Shown piece by piece: positions 1,668 through 18,139 of a stretch of 20,000 nucleotides of DNA. The stretch comes from Pseudovirgaria hyperparasitica (lineage: Eukaryota): the NCBI GenBank assembly GCA_010093815.1, contig ML996579.1; one strand, written 5' to 3'. How positions within the stretch are numbered: position 1 is the first letter of the stretch; each line of letters starts with the position of its first letter. Under the pieces are notes generated by a model, which was not told the DNA's origin, searched no databases, and worked only from the letters and a program-made list of their open reading frames with translations. The position numbers and the translations under genes are program-made.

Positions 1668-2939
1668 TCACTGGCCTCCTCCAACTCCGAACATCTCCGT
1701 TCTCACTCTTTCACTGTCAACTCCATACTCCTTCAACTTCGCCTCTGCAGCACACATGAACTCCGTCGGTCCACAGACAAAGTACCGCGTTCTCTCATCC
1801 CCTAAATGCAACAGCTCCCGCTCTCTCAAAATATCCATGTCCATCCTTCCCTGACAGTCATACTCCTCCCCCTGAGTCTCCCCCTCATCCGGACAAGTCG
1901 TAAAAAATACAACCCTCAAGCCCACATACTCCCTTTCTACATCCCTCAACCGCACACGAAACACCCTATCCACGTCCCTCCTCGCCGTATGCACCAGCGT
2001 AATCCTCCTCTTTCCCTTCTCCGCCTCCAGCATCGCCATCAACGGCGTAATACCCACCCCAGCACCCAGCAACACCAACGGCACATTCCCATCCCCATCC
2101 CCATCCACACTCCCCTCCTTTGCCGCATCAAACCCAAAATCCCCACCCGGGCAAGAAACCTCAACCTCCCCCCCAACCCCCATCCCATGCAAAACCCCAC
2201 TCACGTACCCGCCCCTAAACCCACCCCTCCCATCCTCCCTCTTCACACTAACCCTCAAATACCCCCTTCCAGGCCCATCACTCAAACTATACTGCCGCGC
2301 CTGCAACATACCCTCATCCCCACTCCCAGTAGCGCCCGGCACACGCACCCGCAAACTAACATACATCCCCGGCACAAACCCCGGCACGTCCGCCCCATCC
2401 CCACGCACAAGATAAAACGACGTCACACACTCCGTCTCCATCTCCTTTCGCACAATCCGACACGTCTGCCAGCCTACCCAATTGCTGTGCTCCACACGCG
2501 CGTAGCCAGCGCGCTCAAGCGCAATCATACTGTTCGCAAGCTCCCAATACGCAGCCGTCCACGCAGCACGTACTTCGGCACTCCACACACCCCCGGGCAG
2601 ATCGCCGAGCACGCGCTGCATCGCGGCGATCAAGCCCTCGCCGACAAGCGTGTACATGGGCGGCGTGATGCCGAGGCTAACGTGCTTCGCGCATACCAGC
2701 TCTAGCATCTTCTTCAAACTGGCCTGGTCGTCGATATGCGTTGCGTATGCATGCAGAGCGGAGGCGAGGGCGCGGGCTTGGTGGGATGTGGACTGGTGGG
2801 TTGCGTTGAAGATGTTTGAGAGGTCTGGGTGGGCGGATAGGAGTGATTCGTAGAAGGAGGAGGTGATTGCTGTGCCGTGGAGGGCGAGGGCGGGGATTGT
2901 GGCTTTGATGATTGCGCGCTGGGGGGTTGTGAGGGACAT
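1668..2939 (-). CDS. fhb: Flavohemoglobin (nitric oxide dioxygenase), 423 aa, intronless
   Basis: N-terminal globin (SSFYESLL with TyrB10, HQARALA with GlnE7, KHVSLG with proximal His), FAD-binding RQYSLS, NAD-binding GAGVGITP, CGP and terminal EMFG motifs. Confidence 0.96.
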   Translation of the reverse strand: MSLTTPQRAIIKATIPALALHGTAITSSFYESLLSAHPDLSNIFNATHQSTSHQARALASALHAYATHIDDQASLKKMLELVCAKHVSLGITPPMYTLVGEGLIAAMQRVLGDLPGGVWSAEVRAAWTAAYWELANSMIALERAGYARVEHSNWVGWQTCRIVRKEMETECVTSFYLVRGDGADVPGFVPGMYVSLRVRVPGATGSGDEGMLQARQYSLSDGPGRGYLRVSVKREDGRGGFRGGYVSGVLHGMGVGGEVEVSCPGGDFGFDAAKEGSVDGDGDGNVPLVLLGAGVGITPLMAMLEAEKGKRRITLVHTARRDVDRVFRVRLRDVEREYVGLRVVFFTTCPDEGETQGEEYDCQGRMDMDILRERELLHLGDERTRYFVCGPTEFMCAAEAKLKEYGVDSERVRTEMFGVGGGQ

Positions 2940-2947
2940 TTTCTTGT

Positions 2948-2948
2948 G

Positions 2949-2983
<35 letters not shown>
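2948..2983. repeat. (GTGC)9 tetranucleotide microsatellite in the flavohemoglobin 5' leader
   Basis: Nine perfect GTGC units read directly; separated from the ATG (2939) by 8 nt. Confidence 0.97.
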
Positions 2984-2984
<1 letters not shown>

Positions 2985-3531
2985 AGCGAGGGAAGGGGTC
3001 TTTGGGTTAGAGGGCTGGAAGGATGTAAGAGTGCTGCTGTATGTAGTGCGAGATATATCGGATGTAGATTTGAAAGATATCGTAGTGGTTTTGAGGAAAG
3101 AAACATGTCCTTTATGCTCTGCCTATCCTCGTCCCTCGAGACACGGGACCCCCTGAGCCGTCTCTCGAAAGGGCTGACAGACTTTTTCTTTTATTATTTT
3201 CTTCAAGGACTGGCTGGTGTTGTGTTCGTACTGCTGGCTCCACTGCCAGACCCTGAGTTGCATCAACCCTGGTCCCGACGCATCGTCCTGCTCAGGCTTC
3301 TCCGGGGAGAAAAGGATCCGAGAAATGATTAATTATGCATGTGAGAGCCAAAGTTAGACTGGGCAGGTGAGATTCGATGAGTAAGAAGATCTCGCCAGGG
3401 ACATGGTGTCACAAGAACTATCATGCTGACTGATGTGGTACATCCAACTTGGGCCGTTTGCCCATGCGACGCAAGCATTCTCTGTCAGACCCAGGGACGT
3501 GAGCGCACATGCTCTACGTTCGACACAGCAT

Positions 3532-3539
3532 CTCCGTGG
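3532..3539 (+). promoter_or_regulatory. Putative NirA/NIT-4-type binding site (CTCCGHGG)
   Basis: CTCCGTGG matches the NirA consensus about 590 bp upstream of the flavohemoglobin ATG; a near match CTCCGGGG lies at 3300-3307. Confidence 0.45.
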
Positions 3540-4217
3540 CACGTAGATATACATGGTAGGACAAACATACACCTTCGGCACAGAAGAAACAGCTCAGCAT
3601 ATAGATCGTCTCTGTTTGACTCTACTATTATGCTCATTACTCTTAGCTTCAATCTCCCAACAACAACATACCAGCGCAAAGCCAAAGTATGTCCCGCCAT
3701 GATGCTAGTTATCTGCTATATGCAAATAATGCCCCTTTCACTTGATTGCTTTTCCTTCTAAAAGCCACCATATGAGTAAAGTATACCCATATATCATACT
3801 CTGAACTAATGCTCTGATAGGCTTTTCTTGCCTCTTAGCACTCCTGCTTGGTATCATCAAACTAATACTGTCCTGTCACACAGGGAACAAAGGAAAACTT
3901 GGGCAAATGGGAAAATGTGGATACGGGGGCGGCGTGGAATGGGTGGGGTAAGTCTATGTTACATACGACAAGTCGTAGGTAGTGAAGAAAGGAAAGTGTG
4001 AGTATATGACCTCGTAGCCATGTTGATTGAGAAGATGCCTTCGAGTCGGCCGTTCAGTGACGGAGGATCCGACGGCTAGGTGTCAAAGAAGAGCTTTTTC
4101 CACGATGAACTTTTATGGTCCCACAATGCGCCTTCCAGAGCCGAGCGCCGATTCGCCAGAAAGTAACACGACAACGTCCACCGATGGAGAGGTGAGGAAT
4201 GCTGGTGGACAAGACAA

Positions 4218-6638
4218 TCAAGCCTTCTCCTCACCCTCTTTTTTGCCAGCGTCATTGGGGGCCTCACCCTCGCCTTCGCCTTTAGACTTGACATATTCGT
4301 CATACACGTTCATAGCTTCATCAACCTTGGCACGAAGAGCGACCTCGTCGTTAATCCTGCACAGTGTTAGTGAAATTGTCCAAGTGTTTAGGTAGATATG
4401 GACTTGACTTACAGGTTGATGAGCTCGGTATTGTCCATCTCCAACAACATACCAGTGATCTTACCAGCCAACTCGGGCTGCTGAGTGTGGATCTTGGGGT
4501 ACAGAGCCTCACCGAGCATCTGTTTCTGAGTCTGTGGTGGAGCAGCGTTCAGAGCGTTGACGTCAACACCATCAACAGGGGGCAATGGTCCGGACTGGCC
4601 AGTCTGACCAGGGGCAGGACGACCTTGGGGAAATCCAAGACCACCTTGGCCTGAGCGTCCATTTTGCTGGAAACCACCACGGCCGCCTTGACCGGCTTGC
4701 TGACCACCACGCATGCCTGGAACCATCGGAGGCATCTGAGGCATGCCAGGAGCACCACCCATTGGACCACCACGACCACCAGAACCACGACCGCCCATAG
4801 CAGCGGCTTGTACTTGAGCGACCTGCTGCAGGTACTGAGGGTTCATGTACGGAGGGAAGGCGCCAGGAGGCATGTTTGGTGGCATACCATACATTGGTGG
4901 CATTTGCTGGCCGTTGGGGCCGCCACGTCCACCTTGTTGAGGACCACCAGGGAAGCCAGCTCCGCGTCCTCCTTGTCCTCCGCTCGGCATTACGGGGAAT
5001 GGCATCTGACCACGAGCATTCGGAGGCATGAAGCCCTGCTGACCAGGAGGGAAGAACATCTGGGGTTGAATGAATCCCTGGGTGGGCATGCCACCGGCGA
5101 CAGCAGCCTGCTGTTGGAGACGAATTTGATTACGAGCTTGGATGGTGGCCTCGAGCTATGGCATCATGGTTAGCAACAGAGACTAAAGTGCGCTTTCAGA
5201 GTTTGCAACGTACCTGACTCTTGCGCACATCCTTACGCTGAGCGAGAGCAACGTATAGAGGCTTGCTCTCAAACATCTTTTGATTCATCTCGGTAACAGC
5301 CTTGGTAGCCTCATCAGGATTGCTGAAGCACACGAAGCCGAAACCTTTGCTCTTGCCAAGAATCTTCTTCTCGCCCTTGATGGTGACCTTGTCCTTCTCC
5401 TTGGTGTCCTTTGACTCGTCGCCTGAGCCTTCCTTCTTGTCTTCGCTCTCTTCGTCTTTCTTTGCCTCATCCTTCTCAGTCTTTGCCTCGTCCTCATCCT
5501 TGTTTTCCTCAGCCTCAGCACCATCAGCGGGGAGAGTGTCACGCATGACCTTGGCGGAGGTAATGTTGCCGTATGGCGCAAACATATCGCGTAGCTTATC
5601 ATCATCCACATCGTCATTGAGGTTTTTGACGTACAGATTAACGCCCTGGTACTTCGACTGCTTCTCAATACGGGCAGCCTCATATTGCTTACGGAGCTCC
5701 TCCTCACGTTCGTGCTTCTTCTGCGCACGGCCCACGTACAGCTTCTGACCCTTAAAGTCAGAATCGTTCAGTGTGTCCACTGCGACAGAAGCATCCTCGT
5801 GCTTGATGAAGTTGACGAAACCAAAGCCACGGCTCTTACCAGCATCATCAACAGCCAAAGAGGCGGAGGTGATAGGACCGTGCTTCTCGAAAAGAGCGCG
5901 GAACTCTTCCTCAGTAGCCTCTAGATCAATGTTCTTGACGTAGATGTTGGTGAAATTGGCCTTCATCTCCTCAAACTTGCTCATGCGATCCTTCTTAGGA
6001 ATATGGTGACCAACGAAAACCTTCTTCTCGTTCAACAACATACCGTTGACATGCTTGATGGCATTGGTGGCTGCCTCGGCAGTCTCGTAGTGAACGAATC
6101 CGTAACCCTTGGAGTTGCCTTGCTCATCCTGAGCGACCTTGCAACTGAGGATGTTGCCAAACGCGGCAAATGTATCGTGGAGAGCCTTGTTGTCGATAGC
6201 AACATCCAGGTTTTTGATGAAGACATTTCCTTGACCAGTCTTGCGCAGAGCTGGGTCACGCTGGGACCACATGATGCGGCAGGGCTTTCCTTTGATGACA
6301 GTGTAGTTGAGCTCCTCCAAAGCCTTCTCTCCGTCCTCGGAAGAGTTGTAGTTGACATAAGCGTATCCGAGAGAGCGACGAGTAACGGCGTCACGGCAGA
6401 CACGAATCGAAGCTACCTGGCCGATGGAGGAGAAGAGCTCGAACAACATGGCTTCGGTGACAGAAGGATCGAGCTCGCCCACGTAGAGGGAAGCAGAGTT
6501 GTGATGGGCAGAGGAAGGTGCTGCAGAGGTGGGAGTTGGCACCTCAGAGCCGGAAGGCGCACCGACATTGGTGTTGATGCTGGCACCGTTGGGACCGGCC
6601 TCAGCGGGCGCCGGTGAAGTAGAAGCTTCAGCAGACAT
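4218..6638 (-). CDS. pab1: Cytoplasmic poly(A)-binding protein, 768 aa; exons 6638-5214, 5155-4413, 4356-4218
   Basis: Four RRMs ([42 protein letters not shown]), Pro/Gly/Gln/Met-rich RGG linker and MLLE domain ([11 protein letters not shown]...[10 protein letters not shown]). Introns 5156-5213 (GTACGT..GCTAAC..TAG) and 4357-4412 (GTAAGT..ACTAAC..CAG) keep the frame (2307 nt). Confidence 0.98.
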
Positions 6639-13007: not shown

Positions 13008-14198
13008 TTATTTCTGGTACTTGTTGTAGGTGTCAATCACCTTTTGCACTTCGTCATAACTGCCCAGGAAGATGCCGGACCGATCGTGAATATGCTCGGG
13101 CGGAACCTCAAGCATGCGCTGCATCTTACTATTGACAGCCTGACCACCAGCTATACATTCGTTAGCAAGCGGCATCCTATAAGCCGAGACGGAACTCACC
13201 ATTTTCAAAAACCATAGCCATAGGAGCGCATTCGTACAGAATACGAAGCTTTCCCTTGGGGCTCTTCTTGTCTGCTGGGTACGCAAAGATACCTCCGTAC
13301 AATAGAGTACGGTAAGCATCTGCCACCATGGAACCGATGTATCTCGCGCTATATGGCTTGCTCGATTCAGATCCCTTGAGGCTGTTGACCCACTCCTTGA
13401 TCGGCTCTTCCCAGTAAAGACTGTTACCCTCATTCACCGAATAGATCGCGCGCTGCTTCGGAACCTTCATGTCGGGATGGGTCATGATGAACTCGCCCAG
13501 CGCATTGTCCATGGTGAAGCCAGTGACAGGACCGTCCTTTGTGGTAATGACTAATTGCGTCGAGGCTCCATACATGGTAAATCCACTAGCCACCAGCTCC
13601 GTTCCAGGTTTCAGGATCTCTTCTTTTGTCCCCTGCGCCCCTGGCTCGAGTCTATAGATGCCGAAGATTGTACCGACCGATACACCTGCGTCTAGATTGG
13701 ACGAACCGTCGATAGGATCGCAAACGACAGCATATCTGGCATCTGGAAATTCATCAAACTTGATGACCTCCTCCTCCTCCTCCGAGACCAACATGCGTAC
13801 TCTTGCACAGCTGCGCATCGCGCTGATGAACAGATCATTTCCAATCACATCAAGCTTCTTCTGATCGTCGCCCGTGGTATTTGATGAGCCCGCAAGACCA
13901 GTGAGCTACAGGCACTGTTAGCATCATGTCCGCACAGCTGCAGACTGTACGACGTACGTTGATGAGGGTAGCACGTCGAATGTAATATGCTATGCTTTTG
14001 AATGCAAATTGTAGGGCGTGGCAGAGTAACCTGAGCTCAGTGGTCAGTCTGTAGAACTGACTCAAGATGAGCGTCAACATACGTGAAGTCTCCAGTGGCT
14101 TCTTTGTGTTTGGTTTGCTCCTCGGTCAGGAAGCGCGTGAGAGTGACAATGTCGGTGTTGACCTTTTCCGTCGGAGCTCCATTTCCGTTCGTTGCCAT
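13008..14198 (-). CDS. fbp1: Fructose-1,6-bisphosphatase class I, 345 aa; exons 14198-14083, 14030-13958, 13905-13200, 13150-13008
   Basis: Motifs GDDQKKLDV, SEE, DPIDGSSN, RYIGSMVAD, GKLRILYECAPM. Three canonical introns (14031-14082, 13906-13957, 13151-13199) give 1038 nt in frame. Confidence 0.98.
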
Positions 14199-14479
14199 GA
14201 TTGCGAGTTTAATGGTCGTTGGGGTCTTTCAGGGAAAAGAGAGAGAGGAGAAAGCGATGATATTAAGATTTAGTACAGATGTCAAAGTGAAGCTTCAGAT
14301 GATTCAGAAGAGCCTCGGGTGTGCGGATTAATCTGCTACGGCCTTGGAGTTTCTGCAATTACTTCAAGTATGTGCGAGGTGAGTTATGGAGGTTGGTATG
14401 GACCCGATCGTGGTGTAATGAAGAAGCAGCGAGCCGATTGTCTCATGATTAAGTATCCCGAGGTCAAACTTGTACCAGG

Positions 14480-14492
14480 CCGTGATTTGCCG
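14480..14492. promoter_or_regulatory. CCG-N7-CCG site (AcuK/AcuM-type gluconeogenic activator motif), proximal copy
   Basis: CCG TGATTTG CCG, 282 bp upstream of the fbp1 ATG. Confidence 0.6.
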
Positions 14493-14503
14493 TTCTCGTG
14501 AGA

Positions 14504-14565
14504 GCGGAGTGTACTGCTACAGAGTGCCAGATGACGACGATAGGTGGAGCGTTCTGATTGCGGGG
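14504..14565 (+). promoter_or_regulatory. Cluster of three CreA/Cre1 consensus sites (SYGGRG)
   Basis: GCGGAG 14504-14509, GTGGAG 14544-14549, GCGGGG 14560-14565, between the two CCG-N7-CCG sites. The motif is short, so chance matches are common. Confidence 0.4.
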
Positions 14566-14601
14566 CAGATTAGCTCCTTGAGGTCTCTGCAGTGCTTTCT
14601 C

Positions 14602-14614
14602 CCGACATCTCCCG
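14602..14614. promoter_or_regulatory. CCG-N7-CCG site (AcuK/AcuM-type motif), distal copy
   Basis: CCG ACATCTC CCG, 404 bp upstream of the fbp1 ATG. Confidence 0.6.
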
Positions 14615-15206
14615 CTATTCGGCCGGCTTCATAGCGATAAATGGCGCATCGTCTTGAGACAGCGACGGTCATGTATCAATATCATAGATGAGAAGACATT
14701 GGAGTGAAAGGAGTCCGCCATTGCTACCCTAGCACCACTCAAGTTTAATCACAGACATCGGGATCAAGTGCTCGCGTGTTCATGACCTCCAGAAGCGGTA
14801 AGGTCTGATCGACTCGGCACAGCACCGTCCTGCTGGGAAAAAGACTACATGAGCGTGCCAACCATTAGCATATTCTGTGTCAGCAGGCTCATCGATTCGT
14901 GGAATGAGGTTGGCATAACGATTATTGCTGAGAAGTCATTGGGATTCAGGCTACAACAAAGCCAACGTGGGTGTTGGATCATTTCAGGGAGAGCCCTGGC
15001 AGGGAGAAGTGTGTAAGCTAGGCTCGAAAGAGCAAGGGAGCTATGGCCCAGCTAGCCTGCGCCGGGGAACAGCCGTAGTTCAACCGTAGTAGCGAAACTT
15101 TTTCTCGGTTACCAATTCGTCTACAAAGCTCTTCTTCACCAGCCCATCTTCAATACACATCTCGCCATGCAACTATGTAAGTACAGCTACTTCTCGTCTT
15201 TCCTTT

Positions 15207-15283
15207 CTGATGATTTGTACAACCGCAAACTAGAGTCTTTGACCTCCAAAGAGGAATGAAACTCATCGCACACGTCAGTCTGA
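15207..15283 (+). ncRNA. snR78: Box C/D snoRNA snR78 homologue (LSU Um2421 guide), with a second snR72-like guide
   Basis: Box C TGATGA 15208-15213; guide CAAACTAGAGTC 15226-15237 complementary to LSU GACUCUAGUUUG; D' TTGA 15239-15242; box D CTGA 15280-15283 preceded by CACGTCAG-T. Confidence 0.88.
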
Positions 15284-15483
15284 CTACTGTCGCTTCACGA
15301 AAACATTTTTTCTATTACTGCAAAGTCGTCAACTGACAATTTCTCTAGTTCGCATCCGTGACGCGTCGACTTCCTCGCGCTGATGTGATCTGACAGATCT
15401 CTTCGCATCTATTAGGTGCGAAGAGTATGAGCTTTGTAAATGTAAGTCTCTGATACCCTGCCATGATAATATTTACCCTCGCG

Positions 15484-15568
15484 ATGATGACGTGTGAGCA
15501 TTGCTCGCTGGAAATTACCGACCGAGTAGACTTCGGTCTCTCTGAGGCACAACAAAGGCTGTATCTGA
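15484..15568 (+). ncRNA. snR77: Box C/D snoRNA snR77 homologue (SSU Um578 guide)
   Basis: Box C ATGATGA 15484-15490; guide GCTGGAAATTACCG 15507-15520 pairs with SSU CGGUAAUUCCAGC with one bulged A; D' CCGA 15522-15525; internal AGAC-TTCG-GTCT hairpin; box D CTGA 15565-15568. Confidence 0.88.
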
Positions 15569-15689
15569 GCTTCAACTATGTCACCTACTGTTCTGCATAA
15601 TTGGTTGACGGTGTACTGACAAGATGAATTAGGTCGCAACAAGGCTCGCTCTTATACGGTATGGCCATCTTCTGCTCCTCGAATACTAC

Positions 15690-15772
15690 GTGATGAATGG
15701 CACTGGGCTCCGAACTCTAGAATGAAAAGGATATGCCATACTGCGACAGGCCTAGAAAACCTCGTCCACTGA
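15690..15772 (+). ncRNA. snR76: Box C/D snoRNA snR76 homologue (LSU Cm2197 guide)
   Basis: Box C GTGATGA 15690-15696; guide GCACTGGGC 15700-15708 complementary to LSU GCCCAGUGC; D' CCGA 15710-15713; box D CTGA 15769-15772. Confidence 0.87.
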
Positions 15773-15912
15773 TATCTGCCTTGTGTCTGCGACATGTCGA
15801 CGGTGTTTATTATTCATGGAACTGACGTCGCGTCAGGCATCGCGTTGAACACACCGCGCATGAAACCTCTTTACAGTGTAAGTCATGTGCACCACCTCCA
15901 CTCCTCCTCTAC

Positions 15913-15994
15913 GTGATGAACATCTAGATGACGAGTCTTATCTGGATTTTCCAATGCAGACACCACTTTTTTAATAACCATTCATGCCAACTGA
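15913..15994 (+). ncRNA. snR75: Box C/D snoRNA snR75 homologue (LSU Gm2288 guide)
   Basis: Box C GTGATGA 15913-15919; guide TAGATGACGAG 15925-15935 complementary to LSU CUCGUCAUCUA; variant D' CTTA 15937-15940; second antisense element CCATTCATGC 15978-15987 complementary to nearby LSU GCAUGAAUGG; box D CTGA 15991-15994. Confidence 0.9.
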
Positions 15995-16106
15995 AATGAA
16001 ACTGTTCTCCTCGGCCTTTATCGCTCTTCAAGCACTGACGCTGACATGTCGAAAGAAGTCTAGACCATTGGTGTAAAGTATCTCTCCTTCCGATTGCGCG
16101 CCTTCG

Positions 16107-16181
16107 ATGATGATTCGACTTAAAAATGACAAGCATATGTCCAAGCCACCTCGGTGGTGTTGACGAGACTGTCTCATCTGA
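16107..16181 (+). ncRNA. snR74: Box C/D snoRNA snR74 homologue (SSU Am28 guide)
   Basis: Box C ATGATGA 16107-16113; guide GACAAGCATATG 16128-16139 complementary to SSU 5' end CAUAUGCUUGUC; variant D' CCAA at 16141, with the fifth nucleotide upstream pairing to A28; C' TTGACGA 16160-16166; box D CTGA 16178-16181. Confidence 0.9.
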
Positions 16182-16336
16182 CTGTCGTGCGGCATGATCG
16201 GCGAGCTTGCCAGCAGGTCTGAACCTCTGACTGACTGCGCATCAGATTTGTGGTTGAACATTACGAGCTGGATGTATTCTACCAAGGTAAGCCATCTCCG
16301 CATGACGTCCCCTTGTTCAACTTTTACACCTTCCCA

Positions 16337-16420
16337 ATGATGATTTACTCTATCTCACGACGGTCAACTGAGCTACAAGTTAGCTTTGACGAAAGTGCCT
16401 GTGACAGGGCTTTGATCTGA
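16337..16420 (+). ncRNA. snR73: Box C/D snoRNA snR73 homologue (LSU Cm2959 guide)
   Basis: Box C ATGATGA 16337-16343; guide TCTCACGACGGTC 16353-16365 complementary to LSU GACCGUCGUGAGA; D' CTGA 16368-16371; C' TTGACGA 16386-16392; box D CTGA 16417-16420. Confidence 0.92.
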
Positions 16421-17422
16421 TCTTGACGCGCTTAGTCATGACTTTCATGCACTTGCTGCGATGGACTGTGCTGACACTCTCGCTAGGTACGTACAGTGTG
16501 GCAGTGCATTGTGATGTTCCCTCCCTCGTCCCCGTCCTTGTCCTCGTCTTCGCCTCGTAGAGCACATGGTGCCATGACTGGGCCGAAGTGGAAACGAGCT
16601 GTGACTGTTCTGATGAGCGAGTATTCGTATTAGTCTTAAGTTTTTAATCTAAATGTAATCTTGTTATTGCGAACCCAGCAGTGTTCAAGGTGCTTTCTCG
16701 TCAGTGGCATCGTGCAGTGAATGTGGTTGATCCTATGGCTTGTGGTGACATACCTGATACGCAGGACAGCTGGTTTAGATTTCGGAAAGGCCCGCTTATA
16801 CCCAGTTTTCCAACCATACTTCCATCGTTACCTTCGAAAACCCAGCTTGCCACAGTAATGTTTCAAGCAACACGACCAGTGGTGTCAGTGGGTGTATATC
16901 TTGCTATGAGCTTTGTCTCCTACATCAGCTGAAGGTTGACTCCGCCACTTGAGGGCCGACATTGTATAGCCAGCGTAGACATTACTTCATGCGAGGAATG
17001 ACGCAGTGGAGGCCCATAAGTATGCAGCGCCACAGAGCTTGATTCCTGGACCCTGACTCGATTGATCCAACGGCGGATACGCGGATAGAAATCGAACGAG
17101 TTCCAGGCAGCTAGAGGCTCGTTGTGGACCCACAAGGCACATCAATGAACACGATCTAAAGCGTTCAGAAGGCAAGCCCGAGCGATGTTGCGCCGCGCGA
17201 GCGAGGAGAGAGCGCATAGATAAACGAAGGGTTTATCCAAAGCGGCAGTGCAATCAGGGCAGGACAGCTGAGCAAAGAAGCGAGCAAAAGAGCGCGTGCC
17301 TACCTGTGTTTCCCTCTGATATCTATATCCTATATTTTCTCGACCCTTGTTTCTGTCTACTCGTCCAGAATATCTGTCTATTCGAATTATACCCACCGTA
17401 CCGCATCTGACTAAGAGCAAAC

Positions 17423-18139
17423 ATGCCCTTCTTCAAGCAAGTGACTGCAGGACTGAAAGACCTCAAGGCCTCCTACGATCGCAAGAACGCGAATAAAGAA
17501 GGGAAGAAGCCTGACTATGGGACTGGCAGTGACCCTCAAGCGATAGCCCAGCAACCGTTCGGCCACGGGCAGGCCTACGGCCAGCCATTCGGAAACCCTC
17601 CACAGCAGAACGGCGGTGACTATGCTCCACAGCCATCACAAGGACCACAACCTCAGGCCCAGGGACCGCCAGGCCAGAGCGTGCTTCCCGTAGGCTGGAT
17701 CACGCAGTTCGACCAGAGCAGCCAGCGGTGGTACTTTGTCGAGCAAGCGACTGGCCGCACGCAATGGGAGGCACCGGCTTCTTCTGCGCCTTTTCCTCAT
17801 CTTCAACAAGAACAACAACGACAACAACAGCAACAATTCATACCGCAACCCGCTGGTGCACATGACATTCCGCCTCCTCCTCCGGGACCAGCAGCAGCCG
17901 AACGCGGACAAGGCGGGAAGAAATACGTCAAGCAGGCCGCGCACCTGATCGTCGGCGCGCACAAGAAGAAGAAGGAGAAGAAGAAGCAGAAGAAACAGGC
18001 GCAGCAGCACGGCGGTGGTGCTGCGCATGAGCATGGTGGCCAGGAGGAAGAATACGAGGAAGGGGAGGAGTATGAGGAAGGGGAGGAGGGGGAAGAATAT
18101 GAGGAAGAGGAGGCGTATGAGTATGAAGATTATGAGTAG
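17423..18139 (+). CDS. WW-domain protein, 238 aa, with Gln/Pro/Gly-rich regions, Lys-rich block and Glu/Tyr-rich tail
   Basis: LPVGWITQFDQSSQRWYFVEQATGRTQWEAP is a clear WW domain; start context CAAACATG; single uninterrupted ORF. Confidence 0.9.
   Translation: MPFFKQVTAGLKDLKASYDRKNANKEGKKPDYGTGSDPQAIAQQPFGHGQAYGQPFGNPPQQNGGDYAPQPSQGPQPQAQGPPGQSVLPVGWITQFDQSSQRWYFVEQATGRTQWEAPASSAPFPHLQQEQQRQQQQQFIPQPAGAHDIPPPPPGPAAAERGQGGKKYVKQAAHLIVGAHKKKKEKKKQKKQAQQHGGGAAHEHGGQEEEYEEGEEYEEGEEGEEYEEEEAYEYEDYE

Follow-up and report, generated by a model that had tools for sequence, protein, structure and literature searches.

The fungal small nucleolar RNA (snoRNA) gene cluster I is defined as snR78-77-76-75-74-73-72 (Luo 2013; PMC3596301), and its order, together with a length of about 1.5 kb, is conserved throughout Ascomycota (Canzler 2018; PMC5824354). 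Here we describe a 20,000-nucleotide (nt) stretch of contig ML996579.1 of Pseudovirgaria hyperparasitica (GCA_010093815.1), hereafter the window, which at positions 15177-16486 of its + strand very probably carries the Pezizomycotina-type, that is filamentous ascomycete, orthologue of this cluster, consisting of a non-coding host gene with six intronic box C/D snoRNAs.

The organisation of the cluster differs between groups of fungi. In Euascomycetes the snoRNAs of such clusters are all intronic, and in all Euascomycetes the snR72 intron has recombined with the snR78 intron to give an snR78/72 unit, whereas the Saccharomyces cerevisiae cluster is without introns (Luo 2013). In Pezizomycotina the first snoRNA guides both sites (Canzler 2018). 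In Neurospora crassa 45 of 55 box C/D snoRNAs are intronic, and five yeast-conserved clusters lie in UHG-like non-coding hosts, as confirmed by reverse transcription polymerase chain reaction, with host open reading frames (ORFs) of 159-267 bp; clusters I and II are alternatively spliced (Liu 2009; PMC2780460). The same paper draws the parallel between these hosts and mammalian UHG-type hosts and discusses the distance of box D from the splice site in intronic snoRNAs.

Intron modules and host transcript

Direct reading, combined with motif mapping by script, shows six consecutive + strand modules between 15177 and 16486, each of which incorporates, from 5' to 3', 1) a splice donor; 2) a box C (TGATGA); 3) a guide; 4) a box D (CTGA); 5) a CTGAC branch site; and, 6) an acceptor (Table 1). 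A regular expression for the whole module matches six times on the + strand of the window, every time within the array, and not at all on the - strand, compared with no match in 186, one in 13 and two in one of 200 dinucleotide-preserving shuffles with both strands pooled. The modules stand where a preliminary description of this DNA had placed them, although the spacing it gave as about 200-280 nt is measured, from donor to donor, as 265, 217, 219, 195 and 214 nt, which is a range of 195-265 nt. Its statements that the units share no likeness beyond their boxes and that the locus is free of ORFs hold as well, in that the sole direct repeat of at least 12 nt among the units is CTACGTGATGAA, found around box C of units 3 and 4, and that the single ORF of at least 80 amino acids (aa) overlapping the array (16028-16303, - strand, 91 aa) matches no Pfam family at E up to 1. 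The array measures 1310 nt from first donor to last acceptor; taken between about 15110 and about 16650, its length is about 1.5 kb.

Donor and box C lie 31-51 nt apart across the six units, the segment bounded by boxes C and D measures 76, 84, 82, 81, 74 and 83 nt in units 1-6, all within the 70-100 nt spacing of box C/D snoRNAs, and the branch A of CTGAC precedes the acceptor by 11-15 nt in all six introns. With the observed acceptors, box D ends 65, 64, 64, 64, 64 and 66 nt before the 3' splice site in introns 1-6. This near-constant distance speaks for AAG as the acceptor of intron 4 and for intron 5 as placed here, and it is consistent with what is known of how the processing of intronic box C/D snoRNAs depends on their position.

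Splicing was followed in the contigs of two public runs, X1 and X2 (23 and 27 million letters of contigs), over 14900-16900. GT..AG joints are found in the contigs of both runs at 15441>15633 (intron 2), 15657>15836 (cut +1; intron 3), 15877>16059 (intron 4) and 16284>16485 (cut +2; intron 6), and in X2 only at 15176>15349, so that both ends of five of the six introns (1, 2, 3, 4 and 6) are seen, and of intron 5 the acceptor. The latter is used by a joint found in X1 only, 15875>16246, which skips the 14-nt exon 5 and leaves snR75 and snR74 in one 370-nt intron, while a further joint present in both runs, 15877>15960, uses an alternative acceptor, CAG 15957-15959, inside snR75. Contig depth is 0 in bins within introns 1, 2 and 3 and 1296-1986 in exon bins in X2. 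Unspliced precursor is also present, as some contigs still contain intron 5 or portions of introns 3, 4 and 6; contig depth is unable to rank the isoforms. These joints support the earlier proposal that each snoRNA is released by splicing from an intron of its own, but they correct it at intron 4, for which the acceptor had been read as TAG 16061-16063 and the contigs show AAG 16056-16058, five bases earlier.

The longest ORF of the spliced host RNA is 65 aa, comparable to the short ORFs of the N. crassa hosts, which agrees with a low coding potential. The stretch 15112-15150 contains a CCAAT motif and a pyrimidine-rich tract. An unstranded contig continues upstream into the gene for fructose-1,6-bisphosphatase (FBPase).

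Identity of the units and pairing of their guides

Rfam was searched at the gathering score over the whole window and permissively (E up to 10) over 14900-16800. There are four gathering-score matches in the window, all on the + strand within the array: unit 2 is Afu_300, of snR77 type (15477-15570, 41.2 bits against a cut-off of 40); unit 3 is Afu_513, of snR76 type (15686-15774, 68.8 bits against 48); unit 4 is snR75 (15911-15996, 75.3 bits against 40); and unit 6 is snR73 (16333-16422, 52.9 bits against 37). The Afu_513 model (RF01514) and the yeast snR76 model are regarded as one family (Canzler 2018). Moreover, units 1-6 match by eye the printed N. crassa sequences CD5, CD24, CD12, CD7, CD21 and CD31, in that order, over boxes and guides (Liu 2009, supplementary file 1). 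Unit 1 shares with CD5 an identical 22-nt block (15221-15242), a 12-nt block ending in box D and a box C context of CUGAUGA (the box C consensus being RUGAUGA), and unit 3 shares with CD12 an identical block of 32 nt (15742-15773). For unit 5, of snR74/U27 type, U27 is listed as the human homologue of snR74 (Liu 2009, Table 1).

The families thus follow each other on one strand as snR78/72, snR77, snR76, snR75, snR74 and snR73, which is the order of cluster I. The order snR78-77-76-75-74-73 given in the preliminary description is upheld by four Rfam assignments out of six, the guides and the N. crassa likeness, except that unit 1, judged by its sequence, is the snR78/72 double guide typical of Pezizomycotina and not a plain snR78. 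Since the snR72 guide lies within this double guide, no seventh unit is expected, and downstream of 16486 the regular expression finds no module in the window. The + strand of 16487-16700 has no Rfam match at E up to 10. A separate snR72 unit behind GTACGT 16487 was considered and rejected, there being neither a module nor an Rfam match and the contigs being continuous through 16485-16650.

Pairing of the guides with ribosomal RNA (rRNA) was examined on stand-in ribosomal DNA (rDNA). A scan of metagenomes with two snR75 antisense motifs as pattern gave at least 97 loci, and among those listed 15 have at least 4800 nt upstream and at least 1150 nt downstream of the site and were taken as full rDNA units. 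Among the listed loci only L068 has the 12-nt site of the unit 1 D' guide, but the 5' end of its small subunit (SSU) gene is without the exact unit 5 site, and L068 alone being therefore insufficient, L057 was used beside it; both are complete units of SSU, 5.8S and large subunit (LSU) by Rfam annotation. A box C/D guide is an antisense element of at least 9-10 nt that stops 1-2 nt short of box D or D', and the methylated nucleotide is the one facing its fifth position. Read by this rule, the predicted nucleotide type agrees with that of the corresponding N. crassa snoRNA site in seven of seven guides (Table 1; Liu 2009, Table 1). Within the 15 listed full rDNA units, the exact site of the unit 1 D' guide occurs in one as a 12-mer and in 12 as a 9-nt core, those of the unit 1 D guide in eight, and those of the D' guides of units 2, 3, 5 and 6 in 13, 14, seven and 13, respectively; the unit 4 D' site occurs in all 15 by construction of the search pattern. 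Pairing 11 nt downstream of the unit 4 D' target, the second snR75 element (15978-15987) may play an accessory part like the pairings that van Nues et al. reported in 2011.

We propose that RNA polymerase II makes from the locus a single RNA of about 1.5 kb without protein-coding potential, that this RNA is spliced at six short introns, and that every excised intron carries one box C/D snoRNA, whose box D lies 64-66 nt before the 3' splice site. The debranched intron would then be trimmed by exonucleases to the core of the small nucleolar ribonucleoprotein (snoRNP), as in the general pathway of intronic snoRNAs. The six snoRNAs are predicted to guide 2'-O-methylation of rRNA at seven sites, which in yeast-equivalent numbering would be 25S U2421 (D') and A876 (D) for unit 1, 18S U578 for unit 2, 25S C2197 for unit 3, 25S G2288 for unit 4, 18S A28 for unit 5 and 25S C2959 for unit 6.

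Table 1. Exons, introns, snoRNA units and guides of the host gene, in window coordinates. Guide rows give the pairing, the predicted nucleotide on stand-in rDNA and the N. crassa site in Liu 2009 Table 1 (PMC2780460).
Feature	Coordinates	Strand	Details
Exon 1	14900..15176	+	3' end fixed by joint 15176>15349 (X2); contig cover of 14900-15176, 14900 being the edge of the stretch examined and not a mapped start
Intron 1	15177..15348 (172 nt)	+	donor GTAAGT 15177; ACTGAC; acceptor TAG ending 15348
Unit 1, snR78/72-type double guide	15203..15286 (approximate ends)	+	box C 15208-15213; D' TTGA 15239-15242; box D 15280-15283; assigned by guides and likeness to N. crassa CD5
Unit 1 D' guide	15226-15237	+	12 bp; U2492 of L068 LSU; Um2383
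Unit 1 D guide	15271-15279	+	9 bp; A883 of L057 LSU; Am856
Exon 2	15349..15441 (93 nt)	+	longest internal exon; joints on both sides
Intron 2	15442..15632 (191 nt)	+	donor GTAAGT 15442; ACTGAC; acceptor TAG ending 15632
Unit 2, snR77 type	15477..15570	+	box C 15485; D' CCGA 15522-15525; box D 15565-15568
Unit 2 D' guide	15513-15520 plus 15507-15511	+	8 bp, one-base bulge, 5 bp; U551 of L057 SSU; Um575
Exon 3	15633..15658 (26 nt)	+	joints on both sides
Intron 3	15659..15836 (178 nt)	+	donor GTATGG 15659; ACTGAC; acceptor CAG ending 15836
Unit 3, snR76 type	15686..15774	+	box C 15691; D' CCGA 15710-15713; box D 15769-15772
Unit 3 D' guide	15700-15708	+	9 bp; C2159 of L057 LSU; Cm2159
Exon 4	15837..15877 (41 nt)	+	joints on both sides
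Intron 4	15878..16058 (181 nt)	+	donor GTAAGT 15878; GCTGAC; acceptor AAG 16056-16058
Unit 4, snR75	15911..15996	+	box C 15914; D' CTTA 15937-15940; second complementary element 15978-15987; box D 15991-15994
Unit 4 D' guide	15925-15935	+	11 bp; G2250 of L057 LSU; Gm2250
Exon 5, micro-exon	16059..16072 (14 nt)	+	5' end observed (15877>16059), 3' end predicted
Intron 5	16073..16245 (173 nt)	+	donor GTAAAG 16073, predicted; CTGACTGAC; acceptor CAG ending 16245, shown by 15875>16246
Unit 5, snR74/U27 type	16102..16184 (approximate ends)	+	box C 16108-16113; D' CCAA 16141-16144; box D 16178-16181
Unit 5 D' guide	16128-16139	+	12 bp, SSU 25-36; A28 of SSU; Am28
Exon 6	16246..16286 (41 nt)	+	joints 15875>16246 and 16284>16485 (cut +2)
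Intron 6	16287..16486 (200 nt)	+	donor GTAAGC 16287; GCTGAC; acceptor TAG ending 16486
Unit 6, snR73	16333..16422	+	box C 16338; D' CTGA 16368-16371; box D 16417-16420
Unit 6 D' guide	16353-16365	+	13 bp; C2918 of L057 LSU; Cm2917
Last exon	16487..16650 (approximate 3' end)	+	X2 contig 16485-16650 stops in an A+T-rich stretch; X1 contig reads on to 16900

Points of doubt and alternative readings

The assignment to cluster I draws on sequence motifs and homology, on the splicing seen in contigs and on guides complementary to stand-in rDNA, and several points weigh against it. The stand-ins come from unidentified eukaryotes in metagenomes and are not the rRNA of this organism. Maximal rDNA matches of 9-11 nt turn up at about the same rate in the sense orientation, used as control, and in other parts of the window, and in one k-mer scan the rest of the window (about 18.4 kb) gave 15 antisense against 18 sense rDNA matches of at least 11 nt. 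The D' pairing of unit 2 has only 8 contiguous pairs before its bulge, and the best L057 rRNA duplexes of the D-side elements of units 2, 3, 5 and 6 (-17.6 to -25.0 kcal/mol) are no better than those of 30 shuffled guides each; in N. crassa the D guide of CD24 has been assigned to U5-Am62, in the U5 small nuclear RNA (snRNA) (Liu 2009). In the permissive Rfam search unit 1 has no match at E up to 10, and unit 5 matches SNORD27/U27 (16102-16165, E 0.05) with 27.7 bits, under the cut-off of 52, so that the comparison with Rfam suggested beforehand as a check of snR73-snR78 succeeds for four units and not for these two. X1 and X2 represent one sample of one study, their library type is not on record and no run is recorded as RNA; it is from the GT..AG skips and the depth profile, in one sample, that we take them to be complementary DNA and not genomic DNA. 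Likewise, the check on splice junctions gave GT..AG joints at five of six introns in contigs of this unrecorded library type, whereas in neither run does a joint leave 16072, meaning that the GTAAAG donor of intron 5 is not seen, and intron 5 is retained in contigs 16059-16275 (X1) and 16059-16289 (X2). Finally, we infer the accumulation of mature snoRNAs, their assembly into snoRNPs with Snu13, Nop56, Nop58 and Nop1, methylation and the use of the intron 5 donor.

Unbiased antisense k-mer scans were tried as proof of guides and set aside, as 9-mers matching conserved rDNA occur in both orientations and such scans are unable alone to separate guides from chance. Complementarity alone is weak evidence, and it gains its weight from position relative to the boxes and from homology.

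Two further ideas concern parts of the locus and would leave its assignment to cluster I in place. The 3' half of unit 3 (15742-15773, + strand), box D included, is strongly conserved in the Rfam Afu_513 consensus as well as in N. crassa CD12, for which only the D' target is listed (Liu 2009, Table 1), and it forms no duplex with L057 stand-in rRNA better than those of shuffled guides. Being conserved and without a better-than-shuffle rRNA duplex, this half could be a second guide, for a target other than rRNA (an snRNA, a transfer RNA, a pre-rRNA spacer or a messenger RNA). Separately, three splicing outcomes compete near the 14-nt exon 5, namely the use of the acceptor inside snR75, which cuts through this snoRNA, the skipping of exon 5 and the retention of intron 5, and they could adjust how much of each snoRNA is made and thereby individual rRNA methylations. 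We regard this proposal, in both its parts, as unlikely.

It is quite improbable, too, that the spliced host RNA is itself functional, as a source of the 65-aa peptide or as a regulatory RNA, with alternative splicing setting the relative output of snR75 and snR74. The alternative joints 15877>15960 and 15875>16246 and the retention of intron 5 would fit such a role, as would the alternative splicing of N. crassa clusters I and II (Liu 2009) and a hairpin in exon 2, but the 65-aa ORF begins 2 nt before a splice junction and is unsupported, and the isoforms cannot be ranked by contig depth. The hairpin, at 15399-15425 on the + strand, has 13-nt arms that are 92% complementary with 1 nt between them, and a box C/D-like GCTGATGTGATCTGA stands before it.

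Decay of one or two units, unit 1 or unit 5, to copies without a working guide RNA could be read from the Rfam results for these units and from the weak GTAAAG donor of intron 5 with the retention of this intron in contigs. However, both units keep boxes C and D as well as a 12-bp guide that has the expected nucleotide, U and A respectively, at the fifth position, both match their N. crassa counterparts CD5 and CD21 over guides and boxes, and the Rfam misses are explained by many N. crassa snoRNA families being absent from Rfam (Canzler 2018), which makes decay very unlikely. Finally, an unspliced polycistron cut by RNase III (Rnt1-type) as in S. cerevisiae, with incidental splice-like signals, might account, as unspliced precursor, for the contigs in which intron 5 or portions of introns 3, 4 and 6 persist, and would agree with the intron-less S. 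cerevisiae cluster, but this is hardly credible given six GT..AG joints exactly at the predicted sites, six full intron modules where 200 shuffles gave at most two, the constant distance from box D to the acceptor and the intronic organisation in all Euascomycetes (Luo 2013). The cluster I orthologue with intronic snoRNAs is the reading we retain.

Neighbouring genes and known systems

Upstream, an FBPase gene (13063-15176 region, - strand, ATG 14198-14200) lies head to head with the host gene. Unstranded contigs extend without a break from the FBPase coding sequence as far as 15107 in X1 and into host exons 1-4 in X2, which leaves two options, an FBPase leader of about 900 nt or an overlap of the FBPase and host transcripts at their 5' ends. 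Farther upstream, on the - strand of 1668-6638, Pfam identifies a flavohaemoglobin (globin, FAD_binding_6 and NAD_binding_1) and an intron-split poly(A)-binding protein (RRM_1, in five matched stretches, plus MLLE). Downstream, at 17423-18139 (+ strand), there is a gene for a WW-domain protein by Pfam, whose transcript contig begins near 16754.

The value of the locus is chiefly one of annotation, as it gives the exon-intron map of such a non-coding host gene, with its six box C/D snoRNAs, for one more fungus, and it illustrates the known rules of one snoRNA per intron and of a box D fixed at 64-66 nt from the 3' splice site. Two small points merit follow-up, one being the conserved 3' half of the snR76-type RNA, an orphan as regards its target, and the other the choice among splice sites near the 14-nt exon 5.

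Of the systems known to us, N. crassa cluster I has the same six snoRNA families, one per intron of a UHG-like host with short ORFs, the same first snoRNA with the functions of snR78 and snR72 as a double guide, alternative splicing of the host and, by eye, near-identical guides and boxes. There are two differences. First, unit 2 has an extra A in its D' guide relative to CD24, GGAAATTACCG here against GGAAUUACCG in N. crassa, which is also present in the Rfam Afu_300 consensus and gives the bulged 18S duplex (15507-15520). Second, the present host has a 14-nt micro-exon with an AAG acceptor. With fungal cluster I at large (Luo 2013; Canzler 2018) the locus shares the order, the length of about 1.5 kb, the intronic position and the fusion of the snR72 guide into the first snoRNA. 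Against this cluster we find no substantial difference.

The S. cerevisiae snR78-snR72 cluster, which is processed by Rnt1, has the same snoRNA families, order and rRNA targets, but it consists of seven separate snoRNAs without introns, whereas in the present locus splicing is seen and snR72 is not separate. The six GT..AG joints and six full intron modules set the locus apart from an intron-less polycistron of RNase III type. Intron loss in yeast snoRNA clusters was reportedly described by Mitrovich and colleagues in 2010, and the locus again shows the intron-less yeast cluster to be a derived state. Mammalian UHG and gas5 are likewise non-coding spliced hosts in which each intron has a single box C/D snoRNA, placed at a set distance from the 3' splice site, for which Hirose and Steitz are said to have given a mammalian distance rule in 2001; they differ in snoRNA content, and the present introns are much shorter (172-200 nt).

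The locus therefore agrees with cluster I in every respect tested and departs from the S. cerevisiae form as the literature states for Pezizomycotina. The preliminary description called the array hidden, although it named the cluster family as known; the biology is not hidden, since the cluster, its order, its size and its host with one snoRNA per intron are described in Liu 2009, Luo 2013 and Canzler 2018. The arrangement is one already described for filamentous fungi, of which this locus is one more instance.

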